From: an uncultured Sutterella sp. | GTDB taxonomy: Bacteria; Pseudomonadota; Gammaproteobacteria; Burkholderiales; Burkholderiaceae_F | Length of the DNA: 64,000 nucleotides | Direction: 5' to 3' | Assembly (NCBI GenBank): GCA_900767875.1 | Contig: CAAGAT010000074.1 | Location: 34,270 to 98,269 of the forward strand | Translations under genes and position numbers: made by a program | The notes under the pieces: model-generated | What the model was told of the DNA's origin: nothing | The model's input: the letters and a program-made list of their open reading frames with translations, nothing else | The model's database searches: none | In this document: in pieces, positions 1,148 through 27,314 of the stretch | Numbering within the stretch: the first letter of the stretch is position 1 | How the letters are laid out: each line of letters starts with the position of its first letter

Positions 1148-1161
1148 GCAGCCTAAAAAAA

Positions 1162-6035: not shown

Positions 6036-6716
6036 ATGTCCGAAACCTTCTCGCCCTGCATTCGTTTTGATCTGGCCCGCAGCGCCCGCATCGGTCTGCC
6101 CGAGGCGGTGTTCTGCGAGGGCAAGCCCCGCCGCGCCCTGCACACGCTGCTCACCCGTTTTGCCCAAGACAAAGCCACGCCCATTCTCTTTACGCGCCTT
6201 GACGAAGCGCTCTACCGTTCCTTTGAGGAAGAGATCACGCGCGTGTACGACTACGACCCCTTAAGCCGCACGGCCTGGAACGCCAAACTGCCCGCACGCC
6301 CCGAGGGCAAAGCCGCGATCGTCTCGGCGGGCACGGCCGACGGCGCCGTGGCGCGCGAGGCCGCACGAACGCTCACGTACCTGGGCTGGCGTTGCGAACT
6401 GTTCGAAGACTGCGGCGTGGCCGGTCTGTGGCGCATTCAAAGCGTCATCGATGAAATCAACACGGCCGACGTGATCGTCGTGACCGCCGGGCTTGACGCC
6501 GCCCTGGCCAGCGTGCTCGGGGGCCTGACGCACCGCCCGCTCATTGCGGTGCCCACATCCGTGGGATACGGCGTGGCGCAGGGCGGACAGGCGGCCTTGA
6601 GCAGCATGCTGAGCTCGTGTGCGCCGGGCGTGGCCGTCATGAACATCGACAACGGGTACGGGGCCGCCTGCGCCGCCGCCCGCATTCTCAACGCCGTTTA
6701 TCCGAGCAAGGACTGA
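6036..6716 (+). CDS. larB: LarB, pyridinium-3,5-biscarboxylic acid mononucleotide synthase (PurE-like)
   Basis: 226 aa; PurE/AIR-carboxylase-like C-terminal half (VIVVTAGLDAALASVLGG..IAVPTSVGYG); sits between larA and larC. Confidence 0.8.
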   Translation: MSETFSPCIRFDLARSARIGLPEAVFCEGKPRRALHTLLTRFAQDKATPILFTRLDEALYRSFEEEITRVYDYDPLSRTAWNAKLPARPEGKAAIVSAGTADGAVAREAARTLTYLGWRCELFEDCGVAGLWRIQSVIDEINTADVIVVTAGLDAALASVLGGLTHRPLIAVPTSVGYGVAQGGQAALSSMLSSCAPGVAVMNIDNGYGAACAAARILNAVYPSKD

Positions 6717-6718
6717 AA

Positions 6719-7507: not shown

Positions 7508-7603
7508 GGCCGCTTCAGAGCGCACCACATGCAAACGGCGCGCCGAATTTACAATCGGTGCGCCGTTGCCTTTTGGGGGCCGCCGTCCCCCTCCTTATCC
7601 GCC

Positions 7604-8989: not shown

Positions 8990-9258
8990 AAATTTTCTCC
9001 TGACGCCTGTCGGTTTTGTCTTCGGATGTTGGGATTGTAGACAGTTCGACTTTTGCCAAGGCCCCGAAGTTGTTTTCGTCTTTTGCAGCCGCGTGCGTCC
9101 GTTGAAGGCGCGTTTGCCCTCGGAAGGCGAAAAACGGCCGCGCAAAGACTGTGCGCAGGCATTAAAATGTGTCTCCATTGTCTCAAAGCCATCCGCTTTG
9201 AACGGCTTGGCTCGGTCCGAGACGGACCGAAACGGAAAAACCGAAAACCGGAGCAACT

Positions 9259-11061: not shown

Positions 11062-11079
11062 TCGCCTTCACGGAAAGAC

Positions 11080-11104
11080 TCGGGGAAAAGCCTCTTTTCC
11101 CCGA
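11080..11104 (+). terminator. hairpin after aspS
   Basis: CGGGGAAAAG-CC-TCTTTTCCCCG perfect inverted repeat; no strong U-tract. Confidence 0.4.
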
Positions 11105-11271
11105 GGCCACACGGCTCGACAAAGCTTGCTTTGCCGGGCCGTTGTTTTTGGTGCAATCGGAAACAAAATCCGCGGCTCGTGCGCCGACGCTTGCCGCTAT
11201 ACTTGGCTCAAATCGGTGCGACAGACGCCGAAAATGCAGACTTTCCCCGATACGGGGCCCCGAACAAGACA

Positions 11272-11652
11272 ATGTCCCTTACCTCCACCAAACAACGCCG
11301 GGCCATCGGCGAGCGCCTCGCGCAGGAGCGCAACCGCTTAAGCTACACGCCGCTGCAGATCGCGCAGCTTCTCGGCGTGCCGCTCGAGACCTACGAGCGC
11401 TACGAGGCCGGCCTTGAGGATCCGGGCGTGTTCAACATGCAGCGCCTCTATACGATCGGCTTTGACGTGATGTTCGTCGTCACGGGCGACCGCTACCGTC
11501 CGGTGCAGGAGGAAAGCGAGCTGCTGCAGCGCTTTCGGGAACTGTCGCTGCGCGGCAAGACCTCCATCTTCATGACGTTGGATGCGCTCGAGCGCCTCGC
11601 GCCCAACCTCAAGGAAAACATCAAAAAGAAGTTCCGCGACACGCTCAGCTGA
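11272..11652 (+). CDS. XRE-family helix-turn-helix transcriptional regulator, 126 aa
   Basis: Start at internal MSLTSTKQRR; HTH segment YTPLQIAQLLGVPLETYERYEAG. Confidence 0.6.
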   Translation: MSLTSTKQRRAIGERLAQERNRLSYTPLQIAQLLGVPLETYERYEAGLEDPGVFNMQRLYTIGFDVMFVVTGDRYRPVQEESELLQRFRELSLRGKTSIFMTLDALERLAPNLKENIKKKFRDTLS

Positions 11653-11791
11653 CCGCCCCGCCACGCTTTGCAATGGAGCTCCCAACGCTCCTTGCACCCG
11701 AAAAACAACAGTTTCATCAAGGAAAGCGCGCACGAAGAGCGCCGCCGCAAATCAGATATGGCAAACTGAGAATCCGTTGAGCGCATTTGCC

Positions 11792-14269
11792 ATGTTTCTG
11801 ACTTCCATTCCCCGCATCGCACGCCTGCTGCTGGCGTTTGTCGTCCTTCTTCTTGTGTTGGCGGTTGCTGCCGTCGGCACGCTTTTCTACGTCCTGGACG
11901 AAAAGGCCGTCAAATCGACCATCGATGCGTACGCCAAAGAGGCTCTGAACGCGCAGGTCGAATACGCCGGCCCCGTCTCGCTCAAGCATCTGACATCGCT
12001 TCAGGTGCACATTCCCGCCCTACGGTTCACGGATTTGGCAACGGGCAGCCTCATCGGCTCGATTGAAGGGGCCGAGGCCGACGTGGCCATGTGGTCGGCT
12101 CTGTTGGGCGCGGTCAACGTCAATTCCATCCGCATCGACGGCGCCAAGCTGTCGCTGCGCGTGCCCTCTTTGAGCGGCGACACCCTGTACGACGAAACCT
12201 TCGGCGCGGTGCGCTTTCCGGCCAATCTGCGCGTGAGCGAATTTCGCCTCAACAACGCCCGTATCGATCTGTCCACCGGGCAAAACGAAACCAAGCGCGC
12301 CTGGACGGTGAACAACCTGGCCCTGGCCACCGGGCGCCTGTCGCCCGAAATGACGACGCCGTTTGAGTTTTCGGCGCATTTTGAGGCGGCCGACGCCGGC
12401 AAATCCGTGCCGGCGGCGCTTCCCGCGCCCGTCGTTGAACCGAGCTTGCCGCAGACCACGCCTGAAGCCGCGCAGCCGGCTCCGGCCCCCGACGAAACGC
12501 CGACGCCCAAGGACGAGGCCGCTGCCGCCTCACCCGCCACGCCGGCTCCCTCTGCCCAAACCGCGGCAGACGCGCCGGCCGACCCGGCCCCCGCTCCCGC
12601 CCACGCCCCCGATTACGTCGACACGTCCGCAAATCCGCAGCCGCCCGCCGGCACGCAGCCGAGCGAGCCGACGATGGCCCTCACGCCGCTCGAGGCCAAG
12701 CCCGACACCCCGGCGCCGGAAACCGACAAAGCGCCCGCGGTGCTGTCCGAAGGCGGCACGAGTGCCTCGGCATCGCACCTTTTCTCCCAGGCCTGGGCAC
12801 AGAGCAACCTGCCCGCCTCAGTCATGCCCTTCGTGAACGTGGATCCCACGACTTTGTCGGGCGACCTCTCGGCCAAGGGCAAGCTCGCCATCTCCGTCAC
12901 GGACCGCTTCGTGATGCTCGAGAGCGTGGGCATTTCCGGTGAAATCAATCAGCAAGGTCAGGCCTGGACGGCCGTGGCCAAGGCCGACCGTCTGCGCTTT
13001 AAGGGTAGCGAGCTGTCGGGCAGCAACCTCACGGCCAGCCTGTCGCAGCCGGCGGACACCACGGGCGACATTCACGTCGGCGCGGTGGACTTCCGCGTGC
13101 GCCCCGGCGTGCTCGAAAGTCCCGAAATGCGCTTTTCGCGCACCGAAGAGCGCGGCGGCCGCGTGGCCACCTTCGAAGCGGCCAGTTCCGTGCGGGCCGA
13201 CTTCGTCAAGCAAAAGGCCGACCTCGACAATCTGACGGCCCGCGTGAGCATCTCGGGCGACCCGCAGCTGCCCACCGACTTCAACGCCTCGGTGTCGGGC
13301 TACATCAAGGCCGATCTGACGAGTCAGGGTGCACAGGTGGGTCTGTCGGGCGACTTTGCCGGCGCTCCCATCAGCTTTAACGGCGCCGTGCGCAACGCCG
13401 AAGCGCTCCCCGAGCTTGAGGGCGAACTGATGATCGGTGCGGTCAACCGCGACACGCTGCCGGGCGCCGAAATGCTCGCCTGGATGCAGCACTTCAATTT
13501 CTCGGGCGCCGTGCGCATCGGCAACATCACCGCGGGCGGCATCAGCGGCACGCAGTTAAACGGCATCCTGTCGATTCAAAACGGTCGCGCCGTCATCGAC
13601 TCGTTGGTCATCAACACGGCCGAAGGGCGTCTTTTCGGGACCTTCGAACTGGCCCAGGACACCTTCTGGCTCTTTAACGGCCGCATCGACGGCGTCTCGC
13701 TCGACAAGTTCATCATCCCGGTGGCGGGCGCCAGTCCCGTCTCGGGCATCGCCAACGGCGATCTGACGCTCTCGGGGCAGCGCTTTGACCCGGCCAGCCT
13801 CAGCGGCACCGCCAAGCTGCGCGTGTTGCGCCCGGCCTACATCGGGCTTGACGCGGCCGCCGTGCGCAACCACCTGGTCACCAACGCCGACACCGCGCTC
13901 ATTACCCGTGAGGGTGCCCGCACGGACCTCGATGAGGCCAGCCTGGCGGTGACCCTGACGGGCAACCGCCTCACGCTGCAGAACATCGTGGCGCGCTCGG
14001 TGTACGTGCGCGGCAAGGCCGACGCCGCCGTGAATCTGACGAGCGGCGAGCTGCAGGGCACCGCGAGCCTGATCTTTGCGCCGCAGCAGGGTGTGCCCTC
14101 CATTCACCTGGCGGCCGCCCTCTCGGGCACCGGCAAGGCTCCCGCCTGGAGCTTTGAGTGGGAAAAATCCGCGCAGGCCCTCGCGCGTGCCCAGGGTAAG
14201 CCTATCCTCGAAGACAAGGACGAGGGCAAGAGCATCTGGCAGAGCGTCAAGGACTTCTTCCGCTTCTGA
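11792..14269 (+). CDS. AsmA-family outer-membrane biogenesis protein with a Pro/Ala-rich low-complexity insert
   Basis: Start at MFLTSIPRIARLLLAFVVLLLV (N-terminal TM anchor). AsmA-like N- and C-terminal regions flank a roughly 130-aa P/A/T/E-rich segment. Confidence 0.7.
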   Translation: MFLTSIPRIARLLLAFVVLLLVLAVAAVGTLFYVLDEKAVKSTIDAYAKEALNAQVEYAGPVSLKHLTSLQVHIPALRFTDLATGSLIGSIEGAEADVAMWSALLGAVNVNSIRIDGAKLSLRVPSLSGDTLYDETFGAVRFPANLRVSEFRLNNARIDLSTGQNETKRAWTVNNLALATGRLSPEMTTPFEFSAHFEAADAGKSVPAALPAPVVEPSLPQTTPEAAQPAPAPDETPTPKDEAAAASPATPAPSAQTAADAPADPAPAPAHAPDYVDTSANPQPPAGTQPSEPTMALTPLEAKPDTPAPETDKAPAVLSEGGTSASASHLFSQAWAQSNLPASVMPFVNVDPTTLSGDLSAKGKLAISVTDRFVMLESVGISGEINQQGQAWTAVAKADRLRFKGSELSGSNLTASLSQPADTTGDIHVGAVDFRVRPGVLESPEMRFSRTEERGGRVATFEAASSVRADFVKQKADLDNLTARVSISGDPQLPTDFNASVSGYIKADLTSQGAQVGLSGDFAGAPISFNGAVRNAEALPELEGELMIGAVNRDTLPGAEMLAWMQHFNFSGAVRIGNITAGGISGTQLNGILSIQNGRAVIDSLVINTAEGRLFGTFELAQDTFWLFNGRIDGVSLDKFIIPVAGASPVSGIANGDLTLSGQRFDPASLSGTAKLRVLRPAYIGLDAAAVRNHLVTNADTALITREGARTDLDEASLAVTLTGNRLTLQNIVARSVYVRGKADAAVNLTSGELQGTASLIFAPQQGVPSIHLAAALSGTGKAPAWSFEWEKSAQALARAQGKPILEDKDEGKSIWQSVKDFFRF

Positions 14270-14501: not shown

Positions 14502-15128
14502 TCAGTAATCGCGCGCGGCGTACTTGTCGGCAAGCTTATTGAGGTAGGCGATCACTTCGGGACCGGTCCAGTCCACAAAACCGCGCACGAAGCCCACGAG
14601 GTTGCCCTGACCGTCGAGCACGAAAAAGCTCGGCACCACATCGAGCGGCACATCGTCGCCGATCACCTGCTTGGTGTCGATCAGGGTGCTGAAGTCTTCG
14701 CCAAGACCGTAGCGCTTCATGAACTTCTTGACGTCCTTGACGTTGTCGTCCACGGACACGGAAATGACGTGCACCTTGCTCTTGGGATCCTTGTTGAAGT
14801 GGCGCTGCAGCTCGTGCATGGCCGGCATCGTACGGATGCACGGCTCACACCAGGTCGCCCAGACGTCCAGGAGCACGAGCTTGCCCTTGAAGGAATTCAG
14901 GGCCACCGGCTTGCCGTTCAAATCGGGCAGCACGGCCTTGGAAAAACCGCGGGTGTGACGCATTTCCAAAAAGTCGCGCAGCTGACCGGGCTTGCCCGCC
15001 ATGGGTTCGCCGTTTTCGACGATCTTGTTTTGGAAGGCCGGAACGTATTCCTCGGCCTGGGGCTGGGCCGCCACGGCGGACACGGACAGGCTTGCCGCCA
15101 GAGCAAGCGAGAGCAACAGACGTTTCAC
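14502..15128 (-). CDS. periplasmic thioredoxin-like thiol:disulfide oxidoreductase (TlpA/ResA/DsbE family); last gene of the octaheme-cytochrome cluster
   Basis: WATWCEPC active site. Start assigned to GTG (V of VKRLLLSLALAASLSVSAVAA signal peptide) preceded by AGGAGA. Confidence 0.8.
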   Translation of the reverse strand: MKRLLLSLALAASLSVSAVAAQPQAEEYVPAFQNKIVENGEPMAGKPGQLRDFLEMRHTRGFSKAVLPDLNGKPVALNSFKGKLVLLDVWATWCEPCIRTMPAMHELQRHFNKDPKSKVHVISVSVDDNVKDVKKFMKRYGLGEDFSTLIDTKQVIGDDVPLDVVPSFFVLDGQGNLVGFVRGFVDWTGPEVIAYLNKLADKYAARDY

Positions 15129-15166
15129 TTTAGGTCTCCTGAAATGCAATGGTTGTTGGTATGCGG

Positions 15167-15634
15167 TTAGGGCTTTGCGGCCGGCTTTTGGCGCCGGCGC
15201 AGACTGCGCCAGAAAAGCAGGGCGCCGACGGCTGCGGCAATCCAGGGCGCGGCCCAGAGTAGAAAAGTGGTGGCGTTAAAATCGGGCTGATAACGCACGG
15301 CCTCCCCGTAGCGCTCGGCCATGTAGTCGAGAATTTCGCCGCGGCTCGCCCCTTCCCGGAGCTTTTGATAAATGAGGGCCTTGAGCTCGCCGGATAGGGC
15401 CGTTTCCGACTCGTAGAGCGTGTTGTTGGCCGAGCTCGGATCGCGCAGCAGCTTGGAAACGGCGATGGCCTCGTCGTAAAGCGCGCGGCCGCTCAAGCCT
15501 TCGCTCTTTTGAGCCGGCTGCGTTGCCGATGCAACGGGCTCGACCGCCTGTGCCGGCATCGGCGTTGCCGTCACGAGCATGAGGGCCGCGCCCAAGGCCA
15601 CCAGGACCCCTTGAATGCGTTGCAAAAGCGTCAT
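15167..15634 (-). CDS. CcmH/NrfF-like cytochrome c maturation protein lacking the CXXC motif
   Basis: C-terminal ALIYQKLREGASRGEILDYMAERYGEAVRYQP aligns to E. coli CcmH (KVYELMQEGKSKKEIVDYMVARYGNFVTYDP). Where CcmH has LRCPKCQNN this protein has LRDPSSANN. Start codon overlaps the upstream CcmF-like stop. Confidence 0.7.
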   Translation of the reverse strand: MTLLQRIQGVLVALGAALMLVTATPMPAQAVEPVASATQPAQKSEGLSGRALYDEAIAVSKLLRDPSSANNTLYESETALSGELKALIYQKLREGASRGEILDYMAERYGEAVRYQPDFNATTFLLWAAPWIAAAVGALLFWRSLRRRQKPAAKP

Positions 15635-17523
15635 TTCCTGAGCTCCTTTCGGCGGCGGGTCAAAAGCGTCACGAGGCCCGCGAACATCATGAGAGCGGCG
15701 GCGCCCCACAGCCAGCTTGCCAGCGGTTTGACGGCCAGTCGCACGAGCCACTCGGTCTCGGAGAGCTTGTTGCCCATCGACACGTACAGGTCGCGCAACA
15801 GGCCGTGATCGATGCCCGCGGCCGTCATCTGCATGCCGTTGGACACAAAGGTCTGGCGCATCGGGAACAAATCCGTGAGGTGGCTCTCGTCCGAGGCCTT
15901 CAAAACCTCAATGTGTGCCGCGTCGCCAAAGTAGGCGTGCGTGTTGACCTTGTAGGTGTCGCGGTAGACGAAAATCACATCCCCAACGGGCTTGCCCGCG
16001 CCCGGCCCCATGCGCACGAGCGCCTCGGTTTCGTACTGCGCAATGCCCGTGGCTCCGACGATGGCCAGGGCGATCGACACGTGCGCGAGCACCGCGCCGA
16101 CGGCAGGGCGAGCGCCCGCCGTCACAAAAGGAGCAATGCTTGCGGCCGCCAGCCAGCCCGCGCTCGCAAAGGCCGCAAAGGTCATGCCGAGCTCCTTGGG
16201 CCCGGTCACAAACGCCAGGCTCCCGCACAAAAGAGCCACGACGGCGCATGCAGCGATGGTCGCCTTAAGGTGCCGCGCGCCCAAAATCTGCGCGCCGCCG
16301 GCCGCGACGGCCGCAAACAGGCTCATGGGCGCAAAGAAGCTGTTGAAGTAGGGAGCCCCCACCGTGAGGGACCCCAGGCCTGCCATGTCGTAAAAGACCG
16401 GATAGAGCGTGCCCACGAGCACGGCCGCCGCTCCCACGCACAGGGCGCACACGGCCAGCGTCAGGCCCGTGTCGAGCGCATCGGGATCGCTCACTTCGCG
16501 CGTCTCGGCCTTTTGGACCGCATCAATGCGCAGGGCATAAAAGACGAGCCCGGGCACGAGCACCAGAATGCAGGCGATGAGCAGCACGACGCCGCGCTCG
16601 GGGTCGGAGGCAAAGGCGTGCACGGACTGCATCAGGCCGCTGCGCACGATGAAGGTACCGAGCAGACACAGCGCAAAGGAAACGATGCCGAGCATCAGAA
16701 CCGTGCGCAGCATGCGCGCGCGCTTTTCAAAAAGAATCAGGGCGTGCAGCAGGGCGCTCACCGTGAGCCACGGAATGAAGGAGGCGTTTTCGACCGGGTC
16801 CCAGAACCACCAGCCGCCCCAGCCAAGTTCCGTGTAGGCCCACCAGGAGCCCAGCGCATTGCCCGCCGTCAGAAAAATCCAGGTGATGATGCCCACGCGC
16901 TTGAGCGCGGCCACGGCCTCGGGTGAGAGGCGCCGCATCCACAGCACGGCCGTCACGAGAGCAAAGACCACGGCCAGCCCGGCGTAGGCGGCAAAGATGA
17001 CGGGCGGATGCAGGATCATGCCGATGTCCTGCAGGATGGGATTGAGGTCGCGCCCCTCCAAGGGAACCGCCGGCAGGTTGCGCAGGAAGGGGTTGGCGGC
17101 CGTCAGCACAAAGGTGGCGAACACGCCCGTGACGGCAAGCATCACGCACTGAATGCGCGCGCTGAAGGCTTCGCGGCCGCGGTGAAAGAGCGCCTCCAGA
17201 CAGGCCGCCACCGCAATGAAAACGAGCCAGAGCAGCATCGAGCCCTCGTGGCTGCCCCAAAGCGCGGCCGTCTTGTAGAGCGTCTCAAGCTTGGTGTTGG
17301 AGTGGTCGGCCACATACGTGATCGAAAAGTCATCGATCAAAAAGGCGCGCAGCAAAATCCCCGCGACGACAATCAGGCACAGCGCTGCGGCGGGCGTGCA
17401 CACACGCCACAGGCCCGCCAGAGTCTTGTTGTCCCTGACGAGGCCGGCAAAAACCGCCGCGGCCCCAAAGAGGGACGAAGCCGCCGCCAAACACAGCAAA
17501 AAGTGACCGAACTCGGCAATCAC
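15631..17523 (-). CDS. CcmF/NrfE-like cytochrome c-type biogenesis protein (heme lyase), 630 aa
   Basis: WWFWDPVENASFIPWL (WWD domain); polytopic membrane protein; CcmF family over the full length. Confidence 0.9.
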   Translation of the reverse strand: MIAEFGHFLLCLAAASSLFGAAAVFAGLVRDNKTLAGLWRVCTPAAALCLIVVAGILLRAFLIDDFSITYVADHSNTKLETLYKTAALWGSHEGSMLLWLVFIAVAACLEALFHRGREAFSARIQCVMLAVTGVFATFVLTAANPFLRNLPAVPLEGRDLNPILQDIGMILHPPVIFAAYAGLAVVFALVTAVLWMRRLSPEAVAALKRVGIITWIFLTAGNALGSWWAYTELGWGGWWFWDPVENASFIPWLTVSALLHALILFEKRARMLRTVLMLGIVSFALCLLGTFIVRSGLMQSVHAFASDPERGVVLLIACILVLVPGLVFYALRIDAVQKAETREVSDPDALDTGLTLAVCALCVGAAAVLVGTLYPVFYDMAGLGSLTVGAPYFNSFFAPMSLFAAVAAGGAQILGARHLKATIAACAVVALLCGSLAFVTGPKELGMTFAAFASAGWLAAASIAPFVTAGARPAVGAVLAHVSIALAIVGATGIAQYETEALVRMGPGAGKPVGDVIFVYRDTYKVNTHAYFGDAAHIEVLKASDESHLTDLFPMRQTFVSNGMQMTAAGIDHGLLRDLYVSMGNKLSETEWLVRLAVKPLASWLWGAAALMMFAGLVTLLTRRRKELRK

Positions 17524-17619: not shown

Positions 17620-18417
17620 TCAGAAGCGCTTGCGCGCAAAAATCGTGCGGGCCAGGGCAAAAAGCGCCGCAGCCCAAGCAATCAGCACGGCCGTCAGGGC
17701 CGAGGCGGGCACGCCCGAGGCCACCGACCCAAAAAGCGACTGATTCAAGAGGCGAAAGGCACTGGCCGGATTGGCGAGCATGAGCGCGTTGAGCACGCCG
17801 CGCGGCAGGCCGCCCGTCATCGAGACGGCCGCCACCAATAGCCCGAGGTCATAGAGCAGCACCACCGCCAGCCACACGAGCACGAGAATGGCCAGCGCCT
17901 GCGCCTTGGTGCGCACCGACAGGCTCACGCAGTAGGCGGCAAACATAAAAACGAGCCCGAGCAGCCAGGCCGTGGCCGCGCTCACCGCCAGCGCCGCCAT
18001 CATCTCGCCCACGGCGTAGGGCACGGCGGCAAAAGCGGCCGCCACCGGCATCACGGCAAAACCGAGCATCAGCACGATGGCCACGGCCGCCCCCTGCCCG
18101 ATCGCCTTGCCGAGCAAAAAGGCCGTGCGGCTGAGCGGATAGGTGAGCATCAAAATGAGCATGCCGCCCTCGAGTTCGCCCACCAAGGCGTCGTAGGCGA
18201 GCAAAATGGCCAGCAGCGGCAGCAAAAAGACCGTGAGCGAAACCAGCGAATTCATCACCACCGACAGGGGCGGATAGGCAAAGCTGCCCCCGATGGCGGC
18301 CGTGCCGAAAAAGACGGCCAGCGACAGGATGGCAAAAAGCAGCGCGCCCGAGACGAGCCAGCGGCTTTGCAGACAGTCGAGCAGCTCCTTGCGGGCCACA
18401 AGCCAAACGTTTCTCAT
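17620..18417 (-). CDS. NosY-like ABC-2 family permease
   Basis: 6-TM ABC-2 permease; start at MRNVWLVARKELLD overlaps the upstream ATPase stop (ATGA). Confidence 0.7.
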   Translation of the reverse strand: MRNVWLVARKELLDCLQSRWLVSGALLFAILSLAVFFGTAAIGGSFAYPPLSVVMNSLVSLTVFLLPLLAILLAYDALVGELEGGMLILMLTYPLSRTAFLLGKAIGQGAAVAIVLMLGFAVMPVAAAFAAVPYAVGEMMAALAVSAATAWLLGLVFMFAAYCVSLSVRTKAQALAILVLVWLAVVLLYDLGLLVAAVSMTGGLPRGVLNALMLANPASAFRLLNQSLFGSVASGVPASALTAVLIAWAAALFALARTIFARKRF

Positions 18418-19316
18418 TGCGCCTCCTCGCGTTGCGCCTGCCCGCTCTTGAGGCAATAGGCGGCAAAAAGGTCGGTCAGACCCGCCCGGCGGATGTCAAA
18501 GTCAAAGTCGTGCATCTCTTGCGTCAGAATCCGAATCACCTCGGGCACCTCGCGCTCGGGCACGCGCAGCGTCTCACCCTCGAGGTACTTGGCGGCGGGA
18601 CCGGCGAGCAAGGCCTGACGGTCAAAGCCGCGGATGACGGCCTTGAGGTTGGAGCGGCGCCGCAGCTCTTCGAGCGTACCGCTTGCGCGCAGTTTGCCGC
18701 CCGCCATCATGAGCACAAAATCGGCGTAGGGCTCGATGAGGCTGAGCTCGTGCGTGCACACGATCACGGTGCAACCCTGCGCGCGCAGCTTGGCCAGCTC
18801 GGCGTACATCCAGGAGGAAGCCTGCGGATCGAGCCCCACGGTGGGCTCGTCAAGAATCATGATTTTGGGCTGCGCCAGCAGCGCCTGCGCCAGTCCGAGG
18901 CGTTGACGCTGGCCATTGGAGCACTGGTTCATGCGGTTGTTGCGCACGGCCGATAGCCCGAGAGCCTCGAGCAACTCGTCGACGCGCGTGGGAGCCACCC
19001 CCTTGAGGGCGGCAAAGTATTTGAGGTGCGCGAGCATCGTCATCTGCTCGTAAAAGCTGATGTTTTCGGGCAGATAGCCGATGCTCAGGGGATCGGATCC
19101 CGGCACCTTGCCCAACACCGTCACGCTGCCCTCTGCGGGGTAAAGTAGCCCGAGAATGTTTTTGATGAGCGTGGACTTGCCCGCCCCGTTGTGGCCGATC
19201 AGCGCCGTGAGCGTGCCCTCTTTGAGCGAGCAGCTCACCCCGTCGAGCACCTTGCGCGAGCCGCGCCAAAAGCCCAGGTTCTTCACGCCGATCGTTTCGG
19301 CACGATTTTCCGTCAT
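18414..19316 (-). CDS. NosF-like ABC transporter ATP-binding protein
   Basis: Walker A GHNGAGKST, ABC signature, Walker B ILDEP; start overlaps the NosD-like stop. Confidence 0.8.
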   Translation of the reverse strand: MTENRAETIGVKNLGFWRGSRKVLDGVSCSLKEGTLTALIGHNGAGKSTLIKNILGLLYPAEGSVTVLGKVPGSDPLSIGYLPENISFYEQMTMLAHLKYFAALKGVAPTRVDELLEALGLSAVRNNRMNQCSNGQRQRLGLAQALLAQPKIMILDEPTVGLDPQASSWMYAELAKLRAQGCTVIVCTHELSLIEPYADFVLMMAGGKLRASGTLEELRRRSNLKAVIRGFDRQALLAGPAAKYLEGETLRVPEREVPEVIRILTQEMHDFDFDIRRAGLTDLFAAYCLKSGQAQREEAQ

Positions 19317-20608
19317 TTGTGTGCTCCCAAAACCGCAGGAGCGCTCATCAGCGGATGGCTGTCGGTGACTCCCTTGCCCCGGTCGATTTCAAGCCGCGCG
19401 GCAAACCAGCGCAGCAGCGCCGTCACCGGGCTTTCCATCAGAAAGCGCGCTTCCGGATAAATCCAGAAAATGCGGTCCAGACTGTCGTTGGGCTGGTAGG
19501 GCGTATCGGCGATGCCGTCGCCGTCGGCGTCCCAGCTCATGAAGGTGCTCCAGTAGTTGCCGCGCCCGTTTTCGCTCCACTCCAAGGGCGTCTTGCCCAC
19601 ATAGCGCACCTGAATCGTGTTTCGGTCAAAGGCGTTGCCCGTGACCACGGTTTTTTCGCCCCCGAGCGCCACGCCGATGCCGATGTCGGCGCCCGTAAAG
19701 GCGTTGCCCTCGACGCGGCTCGCGCCCGGGCCGTAAATGAAGAGTCCCTTGCCTTCGGTATCGAGAACCGCCTTTCCCTTGGGGTTGTGCACGCCCTCGA
19801 CCAAATTGGACTTGACGGTGCAGGCCTCGCAGACGTTGAGCAGGATGCCGAATTCGACGCTGTCACGGGCGGTGTTGTCGCGGCACAAAATCCGGCGGCT
19901 GCTCATCAGGGCAAAGCCGCCCACGGAATTGACCGTCGTATTGTCGTATCCGACGTCGTCGCGCGTGTACATCCAGTGAATGCCGTACTGGGTGTTGTCA
20001 AAAAAGTTGCCGCGCGACTCGGTGCCGTCCGTGTTTTCAAAGTAAAAGCCGTCGCGCACGTTGCGCACGGTGTTGTCGATGAGTTGCGAGCGCTTGACGT
20101 AGTTCAAAAAGACGCCATCGCCGCGATCGAGGATGTGCCGCCGTGCGTTGCCTTCGATCCGGCAGTCGCGCACGACGAGGTTTTCGAGACGGTCGGCCCG
20201 GATGCCAAAGCCCGGCCCGGATAAAGTGAGGGTCGTCAGGCGCACCCCCTCACAGCCGTCCATCACGCGCACGCCGCTGTCGCGCTTATACAGGTTGCCG
20301 CCGTAGTTGCGCACCGTCAGGTTTTCAATCGTGGTGCGCGAGCGTCGGATCGTGATGCCGCTGCCCCGGCCGCCCGCGTCAATGACCGCGCCGTCTTCGC
20401 CGCGCACGGTCAGGGGCTCTTTGAGAAGCAGATTGAGTTTGTAGACGCCCTTGGCAAAGACGATCGTATCGCCCTCCTCGACTTCGTCGAGAATAGCCTT
20501 GACGTCATCGGAGGGCGTCACGCGCCAAACCGCGGCCTGCGCACCGAGCGCAAAGACCGACAGAGTCAGCGCCAAGGCCGTTGGCCCAAATAAACGAAAG
20601 GGCTTCAC
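19313..20608 (-). CDS. NosD-like periplasmic copper-binding parallel beta-helix protein
   Basis: 431 aa with a signal peptide; repeated right-handed beta-helix units (NTVRNVRDGFYFEN, GNAFTGADIGIGV, GNAFDRNTIQVRY). Confidence 0.8.
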   Translation of the reverse strand: MKPFRLFGPTALALTLSVFALGAQAAVWRVTPSDDVKAILDEVEEGDTIVFAKGVYKLNLLLKEPLTVRGEDGAVIDAGGRGSGITIRRSRTTIENLTVRNYGGNLYKRDSGVRVMDGCEGVRLTTLTLSGPGFGIRADRLENLVVRDCRIEGNARRHILDRGDGVFLNYVKRSQLIDNTVRNVRDGFYFENTDGTESRGNFFDNTQYGIHWMYTRDDVGYDNTTVNSVGGFALMSSRRILCRDNTARDSVEFGILLNVCEACTVKSNLVEGVHNPKGKAVLDTEGKGLFIYGPGASRVEGNAFTGADIGIGVALGGEKTVVTGNAFDRNTIQVRYVGKTPLEWSENGRGNYWSTFMSWDADGDGIADTPYQPNDSLDRIFWIYPEARFLMESPVTALLRWFAARLEIDRGKGVTDSHPLMSAPAVLGAHK

Positions 20609-20621
20609 GATCGGGCGTCCT

Positions 20622-21113
20622 TTAGCGGTCGAGCAACTCGAGCGTCACGTCCTTGTAGGCGTAAAGCTTGCCGCCGTGCTTGGCCATGAAGGCCTGCGCC
20701 TTGTCTTGCGAGGAAAAGGCGGCCGGTTCGTTGCCCATGACGCCTTCGACGTCGTGCCCGTAGACAAACCAAGCCTTGGTCGCGTCGATGAGCGCCTGAT
20801 CCGAGGGGCTGTCCCAGTCGGTCGCGCCCATGTCGTGAATGAAAAAGCCGAGCAGACGACGCGCGTTTTCCGGCTGCAGGGCAAAGGTAAAGGCGTCGCG
20901 CCCCGAGCAGAACTTCACGGTCTCGTCTTCGGCGCCCTTGATGAAGACTTCGGCCTTGGGGCCGGGATAGTGGGCGATCACCATGCCGCACATGTGGCAG
21001 CGGTCGTGCGCCTCAAAGGCGACGGGCTTGACCGTTTCGGCGGCCTTGTCCGAGCAACCCGCCAAAAGAGCGCACAAGGCGGCGGCCATCAAAAATCGGG
21101 GAGCGGTCGGCAT
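20622..21113 (-). CDS. NosL-like copper chaperone lipoprotein
   Basis: Lipobox LAGCSDK, conserved HDRCHMCGMVI metal-binding segment, 163 aa. Confidence 0.8.
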   Translation of the reverse strand: MPTAPRFLMAAALCALLAGCSDKAAETVKPVAFEAHDRCHMCGMVIAHYPGPKAEVFIKGAEDETVKFCSGRDAFTFALQPENARRLLGFFIHDMGATDWDSPSDQALIDATKAWFVYGHDVEGVMGNEPAAFSSQDKAQAFMAKHGGKLYAYKDVTLELLDR

Positions 21114-21324: not shown

Positions 21325-22245
21325 TCAGAGCCCGTAGGTCTGACCGGCGTAGAGGATAAACAAGCGCAGGCACATCATGCCGACGACACTGCAAAGCCCC
21401 GTCAGGTAGAACACGCCCGTGCCCTTGGCCTTGCTCAGCAGGACCGGAACGATGAAGCCGATGGCGACGACGCCGACCCAGAAGAGCGTGGCCCACGTGC
21501 CCGTGCAGAAGGCCTGAGCGGCATTCTGAGCGGCGGCGTTGCCGGTGATCAGCGCAACGGCGATCATGAAGATGCACAGGGCTTCGGCGGCCATGATCGG
21601 CCACTCGGCGCCGTGCAGAATCTTCTGGTCGGGGCTGTGCTGGTCCTCACCGAACAAACCGGCGGCAACCATCTTGGCGGCGGCGGTACCGGCCGAAAGA
21701 CCGGAGGCCACGAAGAGGGCCGGCAGCACGGCCTGGTTGATCAGCGGGAAGCGGATCAGTGCACTGATCAGGAAGCCCGTGTAGGCGCAGATGGTCAGAG
21801 CAAAGACAAGCGTGATCCACTGAAGGCCGCAGCGGTGGTTGTCGAACCAGCCGATGATGCCGTCAAGGAACCCCAGCTTGAAGCTGTCGCGCAGTGCAAC
21901 CAGCGTGAGGATGCACACCAGCGGGATGTAGCACAGCAGCGCCATGACGCCCAGGCTCATCACGGAGGTGGGGTTGTAGAACACCAGAATGCGCCAGAAC
22001 CACAGCGGGTTGGTCAGGTCGAGGACCAGGCAAACCATGCCGAGCAGAATGGTCACGGACCCGATGAGGGACGCGGCCTTGAGGATCGGCGTGTTCTGGG
22101 CGGTCTGCTTCTTATACAGGTTGAGCACGATGGCAACGGCAACCGCACCGCCCGAGATACCCGCCAGGAACAGGTAGACGGCAATCGGCCACGGCCAACT
22201 GATGCCCTGCGTCAGACCAAGTGTAAAGTTCATGGTGATTTCCAT
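21325..22245 (-). CDS. NrfD/PsrC-family membrane quinol dehydrogenase subunit
   Basis: 306 aa, about 8 TM helices, NrfD/polysulfide reductase family; start 3 nt after the NrfC-like stop. Confidence 0.8.
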   Translation of the reverse strand: MEITMNFTLGLTQGISWPWPIAVYLFLAGISGGAVAVAIVLNLYKKQTAQNTPILKAASLIGSVTILLGMVCLVLDLTNPLWFWRILVFYNPTSVMSLGVMALLCYIPLVCILTLVALRDSFKLGFLDGIIGWFDNHRCGLQWITLVFALTICAYTGFLISALIRFPLINQAVLPALFVASGLSAGTAAAKMVAAGLFGEDQHSPDQKILHGAEWPIMAAEALCIFMIAVALITGNAAAQNAAQAFCTGTWATLFWVGVVAIGFIVPVLLSKAKGTGVFYLTGLCSVVGMMCLRLFILYAGQTYGL

Positions 22246-22247: not shown

Positions 22248-22946
22248 TTACACTCCTTTCTTCACAATCGGAATGTAGCGAAGCTGCGGTTCAGTACCGA
22301 GTTCCGGGCGGATACGCACGGAATCCTTCACCGCGAGCAGCTTGCTCACATACGACTTCGGGTCGTTGATGTCGCCGAAAATCAGCGCATCGTACTTGCA
22401 GCTTTCAACGCATGCCGGCGTCTCGTTCTTTTCGAGGCGCGTGTGCAGGCAGAAGTCGCAATTGTCAGCGGCCTTGGTCTCTTCGTTGATGAAGCGCACG
22501 TTGTAGGGACATGCCACGATGCAGTACTTGCAGCCGACACACTTGGACGTATCCATCGTCACGATGCCCGTCTTGGGATCGTGATGAGCGGCGCCGGTCG
22601 GGCACACCTTTGTGCAGGGGGAATTCTTGCACTGCTGGCAAGAAACGCGGATGTAACGGCGATCGGGCTCGTAACCGCGGTCGGTTTTGAGCTCGCTGCC
22701 CTGCAGCTCCAGCAACAGACGCGAGCGGCCCTTGGGCAGCTTGTTGGTCTCGTTACAGGCATCTCTGCAGTCTCTGCAACCGACGCACTTGTTCTGGTCA
22801 AAGACCATCACATAGTGCGGGCGGCTGCCGCCGTCGGACGTGGCCGCAGCCGCCGCCCCGGCAAGAGGCGACAGAAGCAGCGAGCCGGCTCCGGCACCTG
22901 CGAGGAATTTTCTCCTGTCAATCTTATCGCTCACGATATTCTCCAC
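22248..22946 (-). CDS. NrfC/PsrB-like 4Fe-4S ferredoxin subunit with Tat signal
   Basis: RRKFLAGAGAGSLL twin-arginine signal; four Cys clusters (CVGCRDCRDAC, CQQCKNSPCTKVCP, CVGCKYCIVACP, CDFCLHT..C). Confidence 0.85.
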   Translation of the reverse strand: MENIVSDKIDRRKFLAGAGAGSLLLSPLAGAAAAATSDGGSRPHYVMVFDQNKCVGCRDCRDACNETNKLPKGRSRLLLELQGSELKTDRGYEPDRRYIRVSCQQCKNSPCTKVCPTGAAHHDPKTGIVTMDTSKCVGCKYCIVACPYNVRFINEETKAADNCDFCLHTRLEKNETPACVESCKYDALIFGDINDPKSYVSKLLAVKDSVRIRPELGTEPQLRYIPIVKKGV

Positions 22947-22984: not shown

Positions 22985-23629
22985 TTAGTCTTGCAACCGA
23001 GCCCTTGACTCGGCGTTGGCGATGGCATTTCTGAGGGCTCTTTGCTGCTCGGGGGCGACCCCGGCATCGAGAAGCATCTTCCAGTGACGCACGGCTTCGT
23101 CGTAGCGCTGGTGCAGGAACGCATCCTCTCCGAGGAGCATCCGCGTCTGCACGTCAAGCGGATTGGCCGACAAAACGCGTTCGATCACACGGCGGGTTTC
23201 GTCCGTCAGGTTCCGGGCGTCGCGATAGTACATCGCACGCGCCAGCCTTCCGAGCGTCTCGGCCCGCGCACCGTCCAGCATCAAAAGCGCGTTGAAGACT
23301 TCAACGGCTTCGTCGTACTGACCGGCCTCGTAGAGGGCCTCGGCAAGCTGCGAATGCGCCTGGGCGTTGCGGGGCATGTTTTTGACCATGCGCCGCGCCT
23401 CGGCGATCTTCGCCGCGAGCATGTAGTTGGTTTCCGCTCCCGTCCGGGCGCTCTGCCAGTCCGCGTACCGGCCAAAGCCGGCGTAGACGGCCACGCTCGA
23501 GACGAGCACGACAAACGCAAATCCCGCCGTCAGCGATTTGGTGCGATTCGAGCCCCGGCGGGCGTACACCGCCAGTGCCGCCGCAAAGGCCGCAAGAGCC
23601 AGTGCGATCAAACCGTCCAAACCGTTCAC
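22985..23629 (-). CDS. membrane-anchored TPR protein, CcmI/NrfG-like cytochrome c maturation factor
   Basis: N-terminal TM segment followed by TPR repeats (AEALYEAGQYDEAVEVFNALL ...). Confidence 0.65.
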   Translation of the reverse strand: MNGLDGLIALALAAFAAALAVYARRGSNRTKSLTAGFAFVVLVSSVAVYAGFGRYADWQSARTGAETNYMLAAKIAEARRMVKNMPRNAQAHSQLAEALYEAGQYDEAVEVFNALLMLDGARAETLGRLARAMYYRDARNLTDETRRVIERVLSANPLDVQTRMLLGEDAFLHQRYDEAVRHWKMLLDAGVAPEQQRALRNAIANAESRARLQD

Positions 23630-23686: not shown

Positions 23687-24472
23687 TTACTGGTGCGGGT
23701 TGGGCATCCCGTTGATCACGGTCTTGCCCATGCCTTGATGGGCTCCGACTTTTTCAACCTTGACCAGTTCCAGTTCAAAGACCAGAGGAGATTCCGGGGG
23801 GATCTGACCGGCGCCAAACTCACCGTAGGCCAGGTTCGCGGGAACCGTGAAACGGAACTGCGCGCCTTCCTTCATGAGCTTGAGGCCTTCTTCCAGACCC
23901 GGGATGATGCTCATCACCACGAAACGAGCCGGTTGTTTGGCTTCGTACGTGCTTTCAAACACCGTGCCGTCCATGAGCTTGCCCGTATAGTTGACCGTCA
24001 CCACGTCCTCGGTACGGGGCGTTGCGCCGGAACCCTTTCTGAGCACTTCATACTGCAGACCGCTCTTGGTCGTCGTCACGCCCTTTTTCTTGGCGTTGTC
24101 GGCGAGGAACTTGACGGCCTTGGCCTTGTTTTCCTTGGCCAGCTTCTCGGTGGCGGCCGCTTCGAGCTTGTTGAGCTTTTCAGCGCGGCTGTTGAGGAAC
24201 TTGAGCAGGTCATCTTCGGAAATCTTGCTCTTTCCGCGGATGGCATCGATAAAGCCCTGTTCCACGAGCGCCATGTCGGCCGACAAGCCGAGCTTGCTCT
24301 GCTTGTAGATCTGATCAGAGATGTAGTTACCGACGGATGCCCCCATGCTGTAGGCTTCTTTCGCCTGCTGGGTGTCAAGGTCGCCTGCGAAGGCAACGGT
24401 ACCGGCACACATCAGAGCAGAGGCCGTCAGCACGATTTTCTTGAGGGATTGCATGGTGGTTTCTTTCTTCAA
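23687..24472 (-). CDS. periplasmic FKBP-type peptidyl-prolyl cis-trans isomerase (FkpA-like)
   Basis: Signal peptide; N-terminal dimerization helix and C-terminal FKBP domain (VVTVNYTGKLMDGTVFEST..FVV..IPGLEEGLKLMKEGA..LAYGE). Confidence 0.85.
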   Translation of the reverse strand: MKKETTMQSLKKIVLTASALMCAGTVAFAGDLDTQQAKEAYSMGASVGNYISDQIYKQSKLGLSADMALVEQGFIDAIRGKSKISEDDLLKFLNSRAEKLNKLEAAATEKLAKENKAKAVKFLADNAKKKGVTTTKSGLQYEVLRKGSGATPRTEDVVTVNYTGKLMDGTVFESTYEAKQPARFVVMSIIPGLEEGLKLMKEGAQFRFTVPANLAYGEFGAGQIPPESPLVFELELVKVEKVGAHQGMGKTVINGMPNPHQ

Positions 24473-24541: not shown

Positions 24542-24967
24542 TTACGGACGCTCGAACTGCCGCCCCGACAATTTCCAGCCGTAGATTCCGTCGGGCATCT
24601 GCCACACGTTCGTGTAGCCGAGCTTCATGGTCTCATAGGCCGCGATTTCGCTGGAGCTGCAAAGGCGGTTGGCGCAGTAAAACACAATCAGCGCGTTTTT
24701 ATCCTTGGGCAGGAGCTTTTGCCAGTTGCCGACGTTGAAAAACTCGGCGCCCGGAATGTAGCCCTCGGCCCAGAGTTCGAGCGTGTTGACATCGTAGATG
24801 TGCACGCCGGGCTCGGTAAAAAGCTGCTCGGCTTCCGGAATGGAAACCTGACGGACTTTGTAGACGTAGTCTTCCGCCGCCGTCAAAGGAGCATCCCCGC
24901 CGGCAAAGCCGATCACAGGGAGCGCCAAAAGCGCACTGGCCGCAAGATTTTGCAGAAGTTTTTTCAT
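24542..24967 (-). CDS. periplasmic single-domain rhodanese-like sulfurtransferase
   Basis: Signal peptide; rhodanese fold with candidate active-site Cys in VFYCANRLCSS. Confidence 0.7.
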   Translation of the reverse strand: MKKLLQNLAASALLALPVIGFAGGDAPLTAAEDYVYKVRQVSIPEAEQLFTEPGVHIYDVNTLELWAEGYIPGAEFFNVGNWQKLLPKDKNALIVFYCANRLCSSSEIAAYETMKLGYTNVWQMPDGIYGWKLSGRQFERP

Positions 24968-25077: not shown

Positions 25078-27129
25078 TTACTTCTTGGCTTCAGTCTTGA
25101 TGAGCGGGAAGTTGCCGTTATCAAGAATCTTCTGAGCCTGCGTCAGATAGGCATTGGCCGTATCAACGCGCTGCTTGAGGTAATCGGGAGCGTGAACACC
25201 CCAGGAACCGTCTTCTTCAACCTGCTTGATGATGTCGGCAGCCTTGTCGACGAGCAGCATGATTTCGGTCTTGGCTTCAACGGTGAGCTTCGTGACTTCA
25301 AGAAGCTTGTTGATGCGCTGCAGGGTGGCCTTGGCAACCTTGTGACCGTCCTTAACCGGGTTCTGCCACTTCATGACTTCACCGTAGATGGTCTTCTGGT
25401 CACCGTACTGCAGGCCCTTTTCGAGCTCGGACAGGAACAGGCTGTGGCAGCCCTTGTTGTCCATCACACCCTTTTCGGCGTTGGCCGTACGGGCGCAGGA
25501 CCACATCAGGTCAACGTAGCCGTGGCCTTCTTCGTCACGGGCAACGTGCCAGCCCTTGGAGTTGGAAGCACGAGACTGACCTTCGGCCGGGTTCATCATC
25601 TTCTTTTCCGGATCAACCATGATCTTGAAGAGGTGAGAACGACGAACGGCGTCGAAGCCCGCCATGTCGGGACGCTGGATGGCCGTGAAGTTTTCGCAGC
25701 TCATCGTGAACGGCATATGGCAGTCCACGCAGTCCATCTTCTGGTGGGTGTTGGTGTTGGCAACCACATCAGCCTGGGTCTTATGGCAATCCTGGCAGGT
25801 CTTGCGGATCGCGGGCTTGGTGTAATAGGACTTCCAATCGTTGCTGGTGACTTCGTGCGGATCGTGGCAGGTCACGCAGCGCATGCCCTTTTCATAGTGC
25901 TTGGACATCATCAGCTGAGAGCCTTCCGTACCGCAGGACGGGCAGGACGACTTCGTCTTGATGTTGAAACCCTTTTCAAGCTTGCCGTGAGCGGACGGAA
26001 GCTTGTAGTCGCTTTCCACGAAGTTGGAGCGCTGGTGGCAGCGTTCGCAGTTGGACTGGAAGCCGTTGGATTCGGCGCCCACGAGGTGGCCGCCGGCGCC
26101 GTGGCATTCTTCACAAGAGATGCCGCGCGAAACGGTGTGCTTCTGCAGTTCTTCGGCGTTGCCCAGAGCCTTGAAGAATTCGTCCTTGCTCTTAAAGTCG
26201 AACTTGAAGGCGTGGCAGACTTCGCAGTAGGAAGTCGCGGACTGGAACAGCAGCTTCTGTTCAAAGGTCGAACCGTAGGAGGTCATACCCCACTGGTGCG
26301 AAGCGGACGGACCGAACTGGCTGAGCTGGGTCGGGAAGTCCGGAATCACCTTCTGGATTTCCTTGGCCTTTTCGGGGGTCAGCCACTGAGCCCAACCGCG
26401 GGAGAACTGATTGCCGCCGGCAACCACGGTACCCGTACCCTTGCTCAGCAGGCCATCACGCACGTGGTAGGCACCGCGCACGAGCCACTTGTCGACGAAG
26501 CCGTACTTCGTGCGGGGCGTACCGATCGTGGCGTAAATGTCTTCGGGCATGATGCCGTCGGGCAGGATCGACGCCTGAGAGCCGTAAAGCTTCTTCTTCA
26601 GATCGTTGTCCACTTCGGGATGGTCGCCGGGGAAGCGAACCGTCTGAGCGTGACGGGAGCGCTTCCACTTCTGGTACTGGATCGCGTGGCATTCGCCGCA
26701 GCGTTCCGGACCGACGAAGCGGTTGGGGAAGTCAAGCACGGACTTGGCGGCCAGACGGTACTGCGAAGCGCTCGGGCGACCGCCCGCAAGCTTGGAGTAG
26801 GTCTGCGCGTTGCCTTCCGTCAGGAATTCCGAACCACGGGTCGAAATCTTATAGACGCCCTTGATGCGGCCTTCTTCCGCATACTTGAAAATGGGGTGAT
26901 TCTGGAAGAGCCAGTCCCACATTTCCTTTTCCTGGACGATGTAGTCCTGCAGCGTCTTGACGCCCATTTCCTTTTCGGTCGTCGACGGGTTATCCCAAAC
27001 CTTCTGCGTGACGGCGTTCACGGTCTTGTTGCCGACACCCGGGGTGGCAGCAGCCTGAGCACCGGAGGCAATCAGCGCAGCGGAGCAAAACAGCGTGGCA
27101 GTCGCCGTTTTGATCATTCTTGTTGTCAT
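25078..27129 (-). CDS. mccA: MccA/SirA-family octaheme c-type cytochrome (dissimilatory sulfite reductase type), 683 aa
   Basis: Start at [26 protein letters not shown] (signal peptide, GGAG RBS). Seven CxxCH motifs (CGECH, CEVCH, CEECH, CERCH, CVTCH, CQDCH, CVDCH). Eighth site is [18 protein letters not shown], i.e. CX12NKGCH = CX15CH at 25444-25497. Confidence 0.8.
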
Positions 27130-27314
27130 CTCAAATCTCCTAATTATTTTTAGCCTGCGCCGTCGGGAAGGGCGTCGCAGACGCCGTGGGGTCTTCAAGA
27201 GACTCCGCGAGCAATGAAAGCGTAACTTAAGGTTGCCTTCAGGGAATTAGGAGTTTTATCGCAGTCCCTCACGAACTTTGATTAAAGTCGAATGCGGCGT
27301 TTTAAGGGGGTGAT

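Follow-up and report, generated by a model that had tools for sequence, protein, structure and literature searches.

SirF of an uncultured Sutterella sp.: a cysteine-free CcmH-family protein predicted to serve the CX15CH heme site of an octaheme sulfite reductase

In this study, we analyzed sirF, a gene encoding a protein of 155 amino acids (aa), within a stretch of 64,000 nucleotides from an uncultured Sutterella sp. (contig CAAGAT010000074.1, positions 34,270 to 98,269; hereafter the window). The protein belongs to the CcmH family of cytochrome c biogenesis factors, and it reads LRDPSS (residues 63-68) where CcmH carries the thiol-disulfide motif LRCxxC. Its gene belongs to a sir/mcc sulfite-reductase locus that is complete and lies entirely on the minus strand, and sequence comparison identifies its product as an ortholog of SirF. 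Judged from the alignments, the second, solvent-exposed cysteine of the motif is lost across the whole SirF clade, Shewanella included, leaving the motif LR[C/D/A]Px[S/A]xN. We consider it probable that SirF is a CcmH/NrfF-family subunit of a System-I lyase composed of SirE, SirF, SirG and possibly SirH, which would act on the eighth heme of SirA and in which SirF would have a redox-inert role in docking or positioning the substrate.

The assignment to the CcmH family is based on sequence and on predicted structure. The sirF product matched the Pfam family CcmH (PF03918) with an E-value of 1.5e-27 and 96 bits (cut-off 25) over profile positions 8-126 of 143, and residues 59-120 were aligned by phmmer without gaps to the CcmH structures 2HL7 (P. 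aeruginosa) and 2KW0 (E. coli). An AlphaFold2 model built from a 58-sequence alignment reached a mean predicted local distance difference test score (pLDDT) of 84, with values >90 within the domain. Helices were predicted at residues 3-22 (signal peptide or transmembrane, TM), 50-62, 79-93, 98-109 and 121-148 (TM), which corresponds to the three-helix periplasmic bundle and single C-terminal TM helix of CcmH proteins, and the position of the redox motif falls in the loop after helix 1. The top Foldseek matches of the model in the PDB were 2HL7 (TM-score 0.72, root-mean-square deviation 2.6 A) and then 2KW0, and these were the sole credible fold matches. The YMAERYG core is present, as is the C-terminal TM helix. 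Pairing with a gene for a CcmF-family synthetase, a further property of the family, was found as well: the ATG of sirF at 15634 shares 4 nt (ATGA) with the stop codon of sirE, a CcmF-like gene located upstream, and sirF adjoins sirE in all loci containing the latter. An identity as an NrfF equivalog was rejected, with 73.8 bits (E 9.6e-21) against NCBIfam TIGR03147 versus a cut-off of 159.2 and no nrfA gene or CXXCK cytochrome in the window. A family other than CcmH was rejected too, since no family but CcmH scored, either in Pfam or when the PDB was searched by sequence and by fold. A preliminary description made from the sequence alone had proposed a CcmH homolog with LRDPSS in place of LRCPKC, a YMAERYG core and a TM anchor, and Pfam, phmmer, AlphaFold2 and Foldseek all bear this out.

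In the phmmer alignments against 2HL7 and 2KW0, LRCPKC of CcmH is placed opposite LRDPSS of SirF, and there is no cysteine in the whole SirF protein. Both Asp65 (GAT) and Ser68 (TCG) are two substitutions away from a Cys codon, the exact SirF sequence is recorded on 110 public contigs, and close homologs down to 46% identity carry LRDP[SGA][SAV] without exception; among 19 SirF sequences spanning this range, 38 columns are invariant. An error in sequencing, assembly or reading frame is excluded by this conservation, by the identical protein on 110 contigs and by the need for two substitutions per codon, and the alignment is in frame and gap-free on both sides of the motif. The chance that the missing cysteines are such an artefact, or that the open reading frame (ORF) belongs to another family, is negligible, as the motif is kept in dozens of species, only CcmH was matched in Pfam and the PDB, and no point in favour of this explanation was found. 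The two observations that the preliminary description had named as fatal to its claim, namely a sequencing or frame error restoring the cysteines and a better alignment outside CcmH, were thus sought and neither emerged.

The distribution of the altered motif was examined by several searches. Scanning a single genome per species with SirF-specific patterns, in a set outside of which the window's own species lies, returned 17 loci from Sutterellaceae (Sutterella, Duodenibacillus) and a few apparently mis-binned contigs, all with the gene order of the window, which accordingly stems from a gut bacterium of the Sutterellaceae. In a profile search covering 1.84 billion representative proteins, the top ~45 relatives all read LR[C/D/A]Px[S/A/T/E]xN, and canonical CcmH with LRC[PL]xCQN ranked only beneath them. 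When a broader profile was used in a second search, based on a word index, 40 sequences of the CxxS type (including Shewanella and Ferrimonas), 16 DxxS, 14 DxxA and 13 CxxC were obtained, and the CxxC sequences all ranked lowest. Looking up seven of the proteins led to eight loci (L018-L025), two of which are from Shewanella (L018, L019) and one from Ferrimonas (L020), and each presented a CcmF-like, then a CcmH-like, then a TlpA-like gene. In six of them, retrieved with 10-kb flanks, this trio adjoins the rest of the sir locus; in L024 and L025, retrieved with 4-kb flanks, only nos genes were seen upstream. A 4-nt overlap of sirE with sirF, as these genes were called, is seen in L018-L020 as well.

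The reverse test started from SirA, and a metagenome scan gave 80 loci. Among the collected loci, all 69 full-length SirA ORFs carried seven CXXCH motifs and one CX15CH. A CcmH-family ORF was within reach in 26 of the 80 SirA loci, and in 25 of these it was not of the CXXC type (13 DxxA, 3 DxxS, 5 CxxS, 4 CxxA). A non-CXXC CcmH was found next to sirE in 24 loci reached from SirF and in 25/26 reached from SirA. The sole exception (L032, 613-1335) reads LRCLVCANESIAES and is part of the tail of a ccmF-ccmH-ccmI operon (12-2476, plus strand) located ~5 kb upstream of sirA (7279-9333), whose product is 75% identical to SirA of the window. From its gene context we regard this CXXC CcmH as a housekeeping paralog coexisting with the sir locus, a situation also described for Shewanella, where a canonical CXXC CcmH is present in addition to the sir system (PMC3769277). 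Overall, the CXXC pair is absent from 50/50 CcmH-family genes classified inside sir loci, the window included. A loss peculiar to this gene or to Sutterellaceae is refuted by this clade-wide absence. The conservation of cysteine loss in CX15CH-associated lyases, an alignment check put forward in the preliminary description, was hence observed, and in a single clade.

Most of the contigs with a stated source among these SirA metagenome loci (L026-L105) derive from human gut metagenomes, while many accessions are uninformative. MccA-type sulfite respiration seems to be common in gut Sutterellaceae-like bacteria, and no published account of it in gut Sutterellaceae was found in the literature searched.

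Several features distinguish SirF from housekeeping CcmH. SirF-type sequences form one side of a midpoint-rooted neighbor-joining (NJ) tree (~95 columns, no bootstrap), and profile ranking, this tree and a shared signature place the window protein beside Shewanella SirF and apart from housekeeping CcmH. The signature comprises I59, the lack of Cys at 68, E83, K85 and I113, with clade-specific states at positions 59, 68, 83, 85, 112 and 113. The CcmH scaffold is kept, namely R64, P66, N70, S76, G95, R108-Y109-G110, Y115, P117, T123, L126, W127 and P130. The ratio of non-synonymous to synonymous substitution rates (dN/dS) of sirF against its orthologs was 0.17-0.30 and overlapped the values of sirE, sirG and sirH, although dS was saturated in most comparisons and the values are rough. 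To judge from these sequence data, sirF is under purifying selection and is being maintained, not decaying.

The first position of the former Cys pair, residue 65 (window 15440-15442), behaves differently from the second. Across loci L001-L103 it is Cys or Asp, rarely Ala (P0052, P0066, P0011) and never Ser, the usual conservative replacement for Cys. Cys is found in gammaproteobacterial and environmental members, Asp in Sutterellaceae and at least two other gut lineages, and about half of the SirF proteins retain the first Cys. Using an NJ tree of SirE from 31 loci as a proxy for SirF, the minimum number of Cys/Asp state changes was three, for the best tree as for each of 200 bootstrap replicates, a count that refers to NJ trees only. 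The loss of both cysteines claimed in the preliminary description thus stands clade-wide for the second, whereas the first is lineage-variable and is kept in the CxxS type of Shewanella. In CcmH, the C-terminal Cys (P. aeruginosa Cys28, E. coli Cys46) is solvent-exposed and has been proposed as the nucleophile or tether for the apocytochrome, while the N-terminal Cys is buried (PMC3884852, PMC8975832); in AF2Complex models, it is the C-terminal Cys that contacts the apocytochrome Cys (PMC8975832).

Based on these results, the following scenario can be proposed. The SirF clade would have diverged from housekeeping CcmH by keeping the scaffold and losing the exposed second Cys, and in the Sutterellaceae lineage the buried first Cys would also have been replaced, by Asp. 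As the CXXC pair is lost, SirF should be incapable of dithiol/disulfide exchange. Instead, it may present the unusual CX15CH segment of SirA to the WWD/P-heme site of SirE, with SirG (together with CcmI) chaperoning the apo-SirA substrate, and SirEFG would then attach the eighth heme at the CX15CH site of octaheme SirA/MccA. Reduction of SirA thiols, if any takes place, could be accomplished by SirH or by housekeeping CcmG/DsbD. A possible rationale lies in the geometry of the substrate: the canonical route uses a Cys pair three residues apart, one of which is tethered and the other reacts with heme, and thiols sixteen residues apart would not offer this tether geometry. The other seven SirA hemes may already be attached when SirEFG acts; the timing of NrfA heme attachment is discussed in similar terms in a review (PMC3601427). 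A physical SirE-SirF(-SirG) complex is assumed by analogy with CcmFH(I) complexes (PMC3884852, PMC10663686), and this contact is inferred, as are the docking role, which matches the specificity or scaffold function suggested in the preliminary description, and the sharing of tasks with SirH. What the data show directly is the identity and fold of SirF, its lack of Cys, the conservation of this state in the clade, the linkage to sir loci, the coexistence with canonical CcmH and purifying selection.

The thioredoxin neighbour SirH is relevant to the question of where reducing power would come from. It keeps its CXXC in 45/47 loci. In three loci (L070, L072, L074), sirE, sirF and sirG, the gene for the tetratricopeptide repeat (TPR) protein, are all absent and sirH still directly follows nosY (sirA 10001-12040; sirH ~18500-19500). 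Since sirH stays in loci without sirEFG, it follows SirA and not the lyase, which fits a SirA-directed thiol reductase independent of SirF. The SirA proteins of these three loci still have the CX15CH site, and the lyase for it must either have its gene elsewhere or belong to a different type. In two further loci, L023 (10419-11045, plus strand) and L024 (4427-5053, plus strand), which are related contigs from the same ENA sample, SirH reads WATWNEPTKRL and has lost both active-site cysteines; SirF is of the CxxS type there, and its Cys is the only redox-motif cysteine of the SirF/SirH pair. SirH can therefore not be the general reductant, and the idea of SirH as a universal reductant is weakened accordingly. 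In Shewanella, deletion of sirH merely delayed sulfite reduction (PMC6976685). Reduction by SirH is thus plausible, but it is neither universal nor essential. The earlier suggestion that the adjacent thioredoxin supplies the reducing activity consequently finds partial support: the conserved CXXC and the association with sirA in loci without sirEFG speak for it, whereas the loss in L023/L024 and the mild effect of the Shewanella deletion do not.

A number of observations weigh against a purely structural, redox-inert SirF. The recurrent exchange of Cys for Asp at residue 65 (at least three events, never to Ser) suggests that this position does more than fill space, and a pure scaffold model leaves the repeated switching unexplained. 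About half of the SirF proteins have the first Cys, and a monothiol reaction is possible in those. The Cys-less SirH proteins of L023 and L024 speak against SirH as a general reductant. No canonical ccm genes, ccmABCDE and ccmGH included, were found in the 64-kb window. E. coli NrfF has been reported to be non-essential (Grove 1996, as cited in PMC3601427), and the mutant studied in Shewanella had lost sirE along with sirF, so that its effect is not attributable to SirF alone (PMC6976685).

An extended version of the docking model takes up the first of these points. SirF could represent a natural separation-of-function CcmH, whose indispensable job is non-redox positioning or stereo-control, with residue 65 in addition having a role that only Cys or Asp can fulfil, for example in hydrogen-bonding to or activating the first Cys of CX15CH. 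Such a role would explain the repeated switching, and we put this version forward tentatively, as a possibility with the odds against it.

The monothiol reaction mentioned above can be formulated as a complete route, in which a Cys-type SirF forms a mixed disulfide with one Cys of CX15CH that is then resolved by SirH, and an Asp-type SirF hands this step over to SirH. Retention of the first Cys in about half of the clade, the position of a CXXC-containing SirH immediately downstream in 45/47 loci and the existence of mixed-disulfide models for CcmH (PMC3884852, PMC8975832) are in line with it. However, the retained residue is the equivalent of the N-terminal Cys, which is buried in CcmH, and not of the exposed nucleophile (PMC3884852), it was swapped for Asp at least three times with the gene being retained, Cys-type SirF is paired with Cys-less SirH in L023 and L024, and the sirH deletion in Shewanella had a mild effect (PMC6976685). 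We therefore regard this route as unlikely.

It could also be argued that SirF is a largely dispensable leftover of a duplicated ccmFH pair, which persists because of its operon structure and translational coupling. SirF has lost the catalytic motif, System I* functions without CcmH (PMC3601427), the report on E. coli NrfF cited above points in the same direction, and some sir loci lack sirEFG altogether. This explanation appears quite unlikely to us in view of the 38 invariant columns and a clade signature that includes E83 and K85, the dN/dS values of 0.17-0.30 in overlap with those of the neighbouring genes, and the presence of sirF in every sir locus that has sirE; where sirF is missing, sirE and sirG are missing too, so that the three genes behave as a unit.

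Less probable still is a new non-redox chemistry at the Cys/Asp position, as an acid/base or ligand that activates the distant Cys of CX15CH or as a contact to heme or copper. The restriction of this position to Cys, Asp and rarely Ala, with no Ser and at least three switches on the SirE tree, the invariant neighbours R64, P66 and N70 and the location of sirF between the nosLDFY copper genes and sirH would agree with such a function, but Ala variants exist (P0052, P0066, P0011), and the sirEFH genes of Shewanella and Ferrimonas are transcribed in the direction opposite to sirA and the nos genes. Taken together, a docking or positioning subunit of the SirA-dedicated lyase remains the reading that we favour.

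The locus surrounding sirF runs in the order sirA, rhodanese gene, sirB, sirG, sirC, sirD, nosLDFY, sirE, sirF and sirH (Table 1), and its gene set and order match the sir clusters of Shewanella (L018/L019) and Ferrimonas (L020). The array sirE-sirF-sirH thus occurs in one locus with an octaheme, CX15CH-containing SirA, which is 59% identical to SirA of Shewanella and 54% to that of Ferrimonas. The neighbours guessed in the preliminary description, namely a CcmF/NrfE-like protein (SirE), a TlpA-like thioredoxin with WCEPC (SirH) and an octaheme SirA/MccA with CX15CH, were all recovered. SirE matched the NrfE subfamily of NCBIfam with an E-value of 4.8e-174, which is under the equivalog cut-off.

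Table 1. Positions of sirF, its motif and the other sir genes in the window.
Feature	Position	Strand	Assignment and evidence
sirH	14502..15149	-	Periplasmic TlpA/ResA-like thioredoxin, WCEPC; Pfam AhpC-TSA, Redoxin, Thioredoxin_8; NCBIfam ResA, TlpA
sirF	15167..15634	-	Cys-free CcmH-family protein; predicted signal peptide, three-helix periplasmic domain and C-terminal TM anchor; Pfam, PDB alignment, AlphaFold2, Foldseek
Motif codons in sirF	15431..15448	-	CTG CGC GAT CCG AGC TCG = L63-R64-D65-P66-S67-S68; position of CcmH LRCxxC
sirE	15631..17523	-	630-aa CcmF/NrfE-family heme lyase, intact WWD motif WGGWWFWDPVEN; Pfam CcmF_C, Cytochrom_C_asm
nosL, nosD, nosF, nosY homologs (sirJKLM)	17620..21113	-	Putative copper delivery to heme-copper active site; Pfam NosL, NosD, ABC_tran, ABC2_membrane_2
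sirD	21325..22245	-	NrfD-like membrane quinol dehydrogenase; Pfam NrfD, E 2.4e-62
sirC	22248..22946	-	NrfC-like 4Fe-4S ferredoxin subunit; Pfam Fer4_11
sirG	22985..23629	-	NrfG/CcmI-like TPR apocytochrome chaperone; Pfam TPR_CcmH_CycH and NCBIfam NrfG, both sub-cut-off; position as Shewanella sirG
sirB/mccB	23687..24472	-	Periplasmic FKBP-type prolyl isomerase; NCBIfam PRK10902, E 3.8e-55
Rhodanese-domain gene	24542..24967	-	NCBIfam rhodanese matches; position conserved in all loci
sirA/mccA	25078..27198	-	Octaheme cytochrome c sulfite reductase; 7 CXXCH and 1 CX15CH by motif count
CX15CH site codons in sirA	25444..25497	-	Presumed substrate of SirEFG; present in 69/69 full-length SirA ORFs collected

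Some further features of the window were noted. The sirA ORF as called starts at TTG, which adds an Arg-rich leader of 23 aa, and an internal ATG is probably the true start; in SirA, the non-heme cysteines C419/C422 (CPSC) and C501 are candidate copper ligands. The window contains a single nosL (20622-21113), whereas tandem nosL paralogs occur in most Sutterellaceae sir loci (L001 4021-4401, L002 4100-4504, L006 3940-4344 and others), one of them being 33-46% identical to NosL of the window. Just upstream of sirA, a predicted membrane protein of 127 aa (27498-27881, minus strand) is encoded, with a GC content at third codon positions (GC3) of 0.79 and no Pfam match. On the other side, the sir locus is directly flanked by the gene for an 895-aa AsmA-family protein (11582-14269, plus strand) with a long low-complexity insert rich in Pro, Ala and Thr around residues 270-380. 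Genes for a type I dehydroquinase, for a LarA-like member of the lactate racemase family (Lar_N/LarA_C) and for a LarC-like nickel insertion protein are grouped at 3699-7507 (plus strand), and this gene content suggests an enzyme dependent on the nickel-pincer cofactor. The window has a GC content of 63%, and its non-sir remainder consists of ordinary chromosomal genes.

For CcmH, roles as a reductant, as a mixed-disulfide tether or as a substrate-presenting subunit come into question. System I cytochrome c maturation requires CcmH, whose role in it is still debated. There is no structure of CcmFH with substrate, and CcmH is thought to aid acceptor binding since dithiothreitol (DTT) cannot substitute for it (PMC10663686, PMC3601427). 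The SirF clade, conserved and widespread, never of the CXXC type, sometimes Cys-free and kept beside a dedicated CcmF paralog, provides a natural experiment that separates redox from non-redox functions of CcmH. It is a useful separation-of-function case for cytochrome c biogenesis without constituting a system type of its own. The sir system itself was already known; what appears to be unreported is that the redox pair is missing across the clade, that a Cys-free form exists and that Cys and Asp have been switched repeatedly, in that PMC6976685, PMC3769277, PMC12285233, PMC3601427 and PMC3884852 make no mention of the clade-wide Cys loss, although an earlier report elsewhere is possible. Furthermore, the presence of the sir locus makes MccA-type sulfite respiration likely in gut Sutterellaceae, which may thus be a source of H2S in the human gut.

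The closest known counterpart is the SirF protein of Shewanella (SO_0477, sirEFH operon), where, as in the window, CcmF-like, CcmH-like and TlpA-like genes follow each other near sirA-rhodanese-sirB-sirG-sirC-sirD-nosLD and which falls into the same clade; the Ferrimonas cluster has the same order as that of Shewanella. The window protein is 36% identical over 124 aa to a Shewanella SirF, and both lack the second Cys, but Shewanella SirF has kept the first (LRCP[SAI]SDNR) where the window protein has Asp and is Cys-free. In addition, Shewanella sirEFH is divergent from sirA, whereas the genes of the window form one co-directional array. In Shewanella oneidensis, deletion of sirEF abolishes SirA, and neither CXXCH cytochromes nor NrfA depend on the sir lyase (PMC6976685, PMC3769277). 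SirF (SO0477, annotated as NrfF) has been described as similar to thiol oxidoreductases, with the missing cysteines unmentioned (PMC6976685, PMC3769277, PMC12285233); the sequence data presented here do not support this label.

With System I CcmH (2HL7, 2KW0), SirF shares the Pfam family, the three-helix fold, the TM anchor, the scaffold R-x-P...N...S...RYG...Y-P...T..LW..P and a CcmF-type partner, but CcmH carries LRCxxC and serves general CXXCH substrates, while SirF carries LRDPSS and would belong to a lyase dedicated to one CX15CH site. E. coli NrfF, which is the best NCBIfam match of the window protein, is likewise a CcmH paralog in a substrate-dedicated CcmF/CcmH/CcmI-like lyase; it keeps LRCPQC, and its substrate is the CXXCK heme of NrfA instead of CX15CH. 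CcsA1, the MccA CX15CH lyase of Wolinella succinogenes, is comparable to SirEFG in being dedicated to the same motif of the same enzyme family (PMC6976685, PMC12285233), yet it is an unrelated single System II synthase without a CcmH-type subunit. Finally, System I* of Desulfovibrio and archaea lacks CcmH and CcmG, and its CcmF-type synthetase manages without any thiol chemistry by CcmH (PMC3601427, PMC9084895). There, the CcmH gene itself is missing, whereas in the case of SirF the protein is kept and conserved and the cysteines alone are gone.

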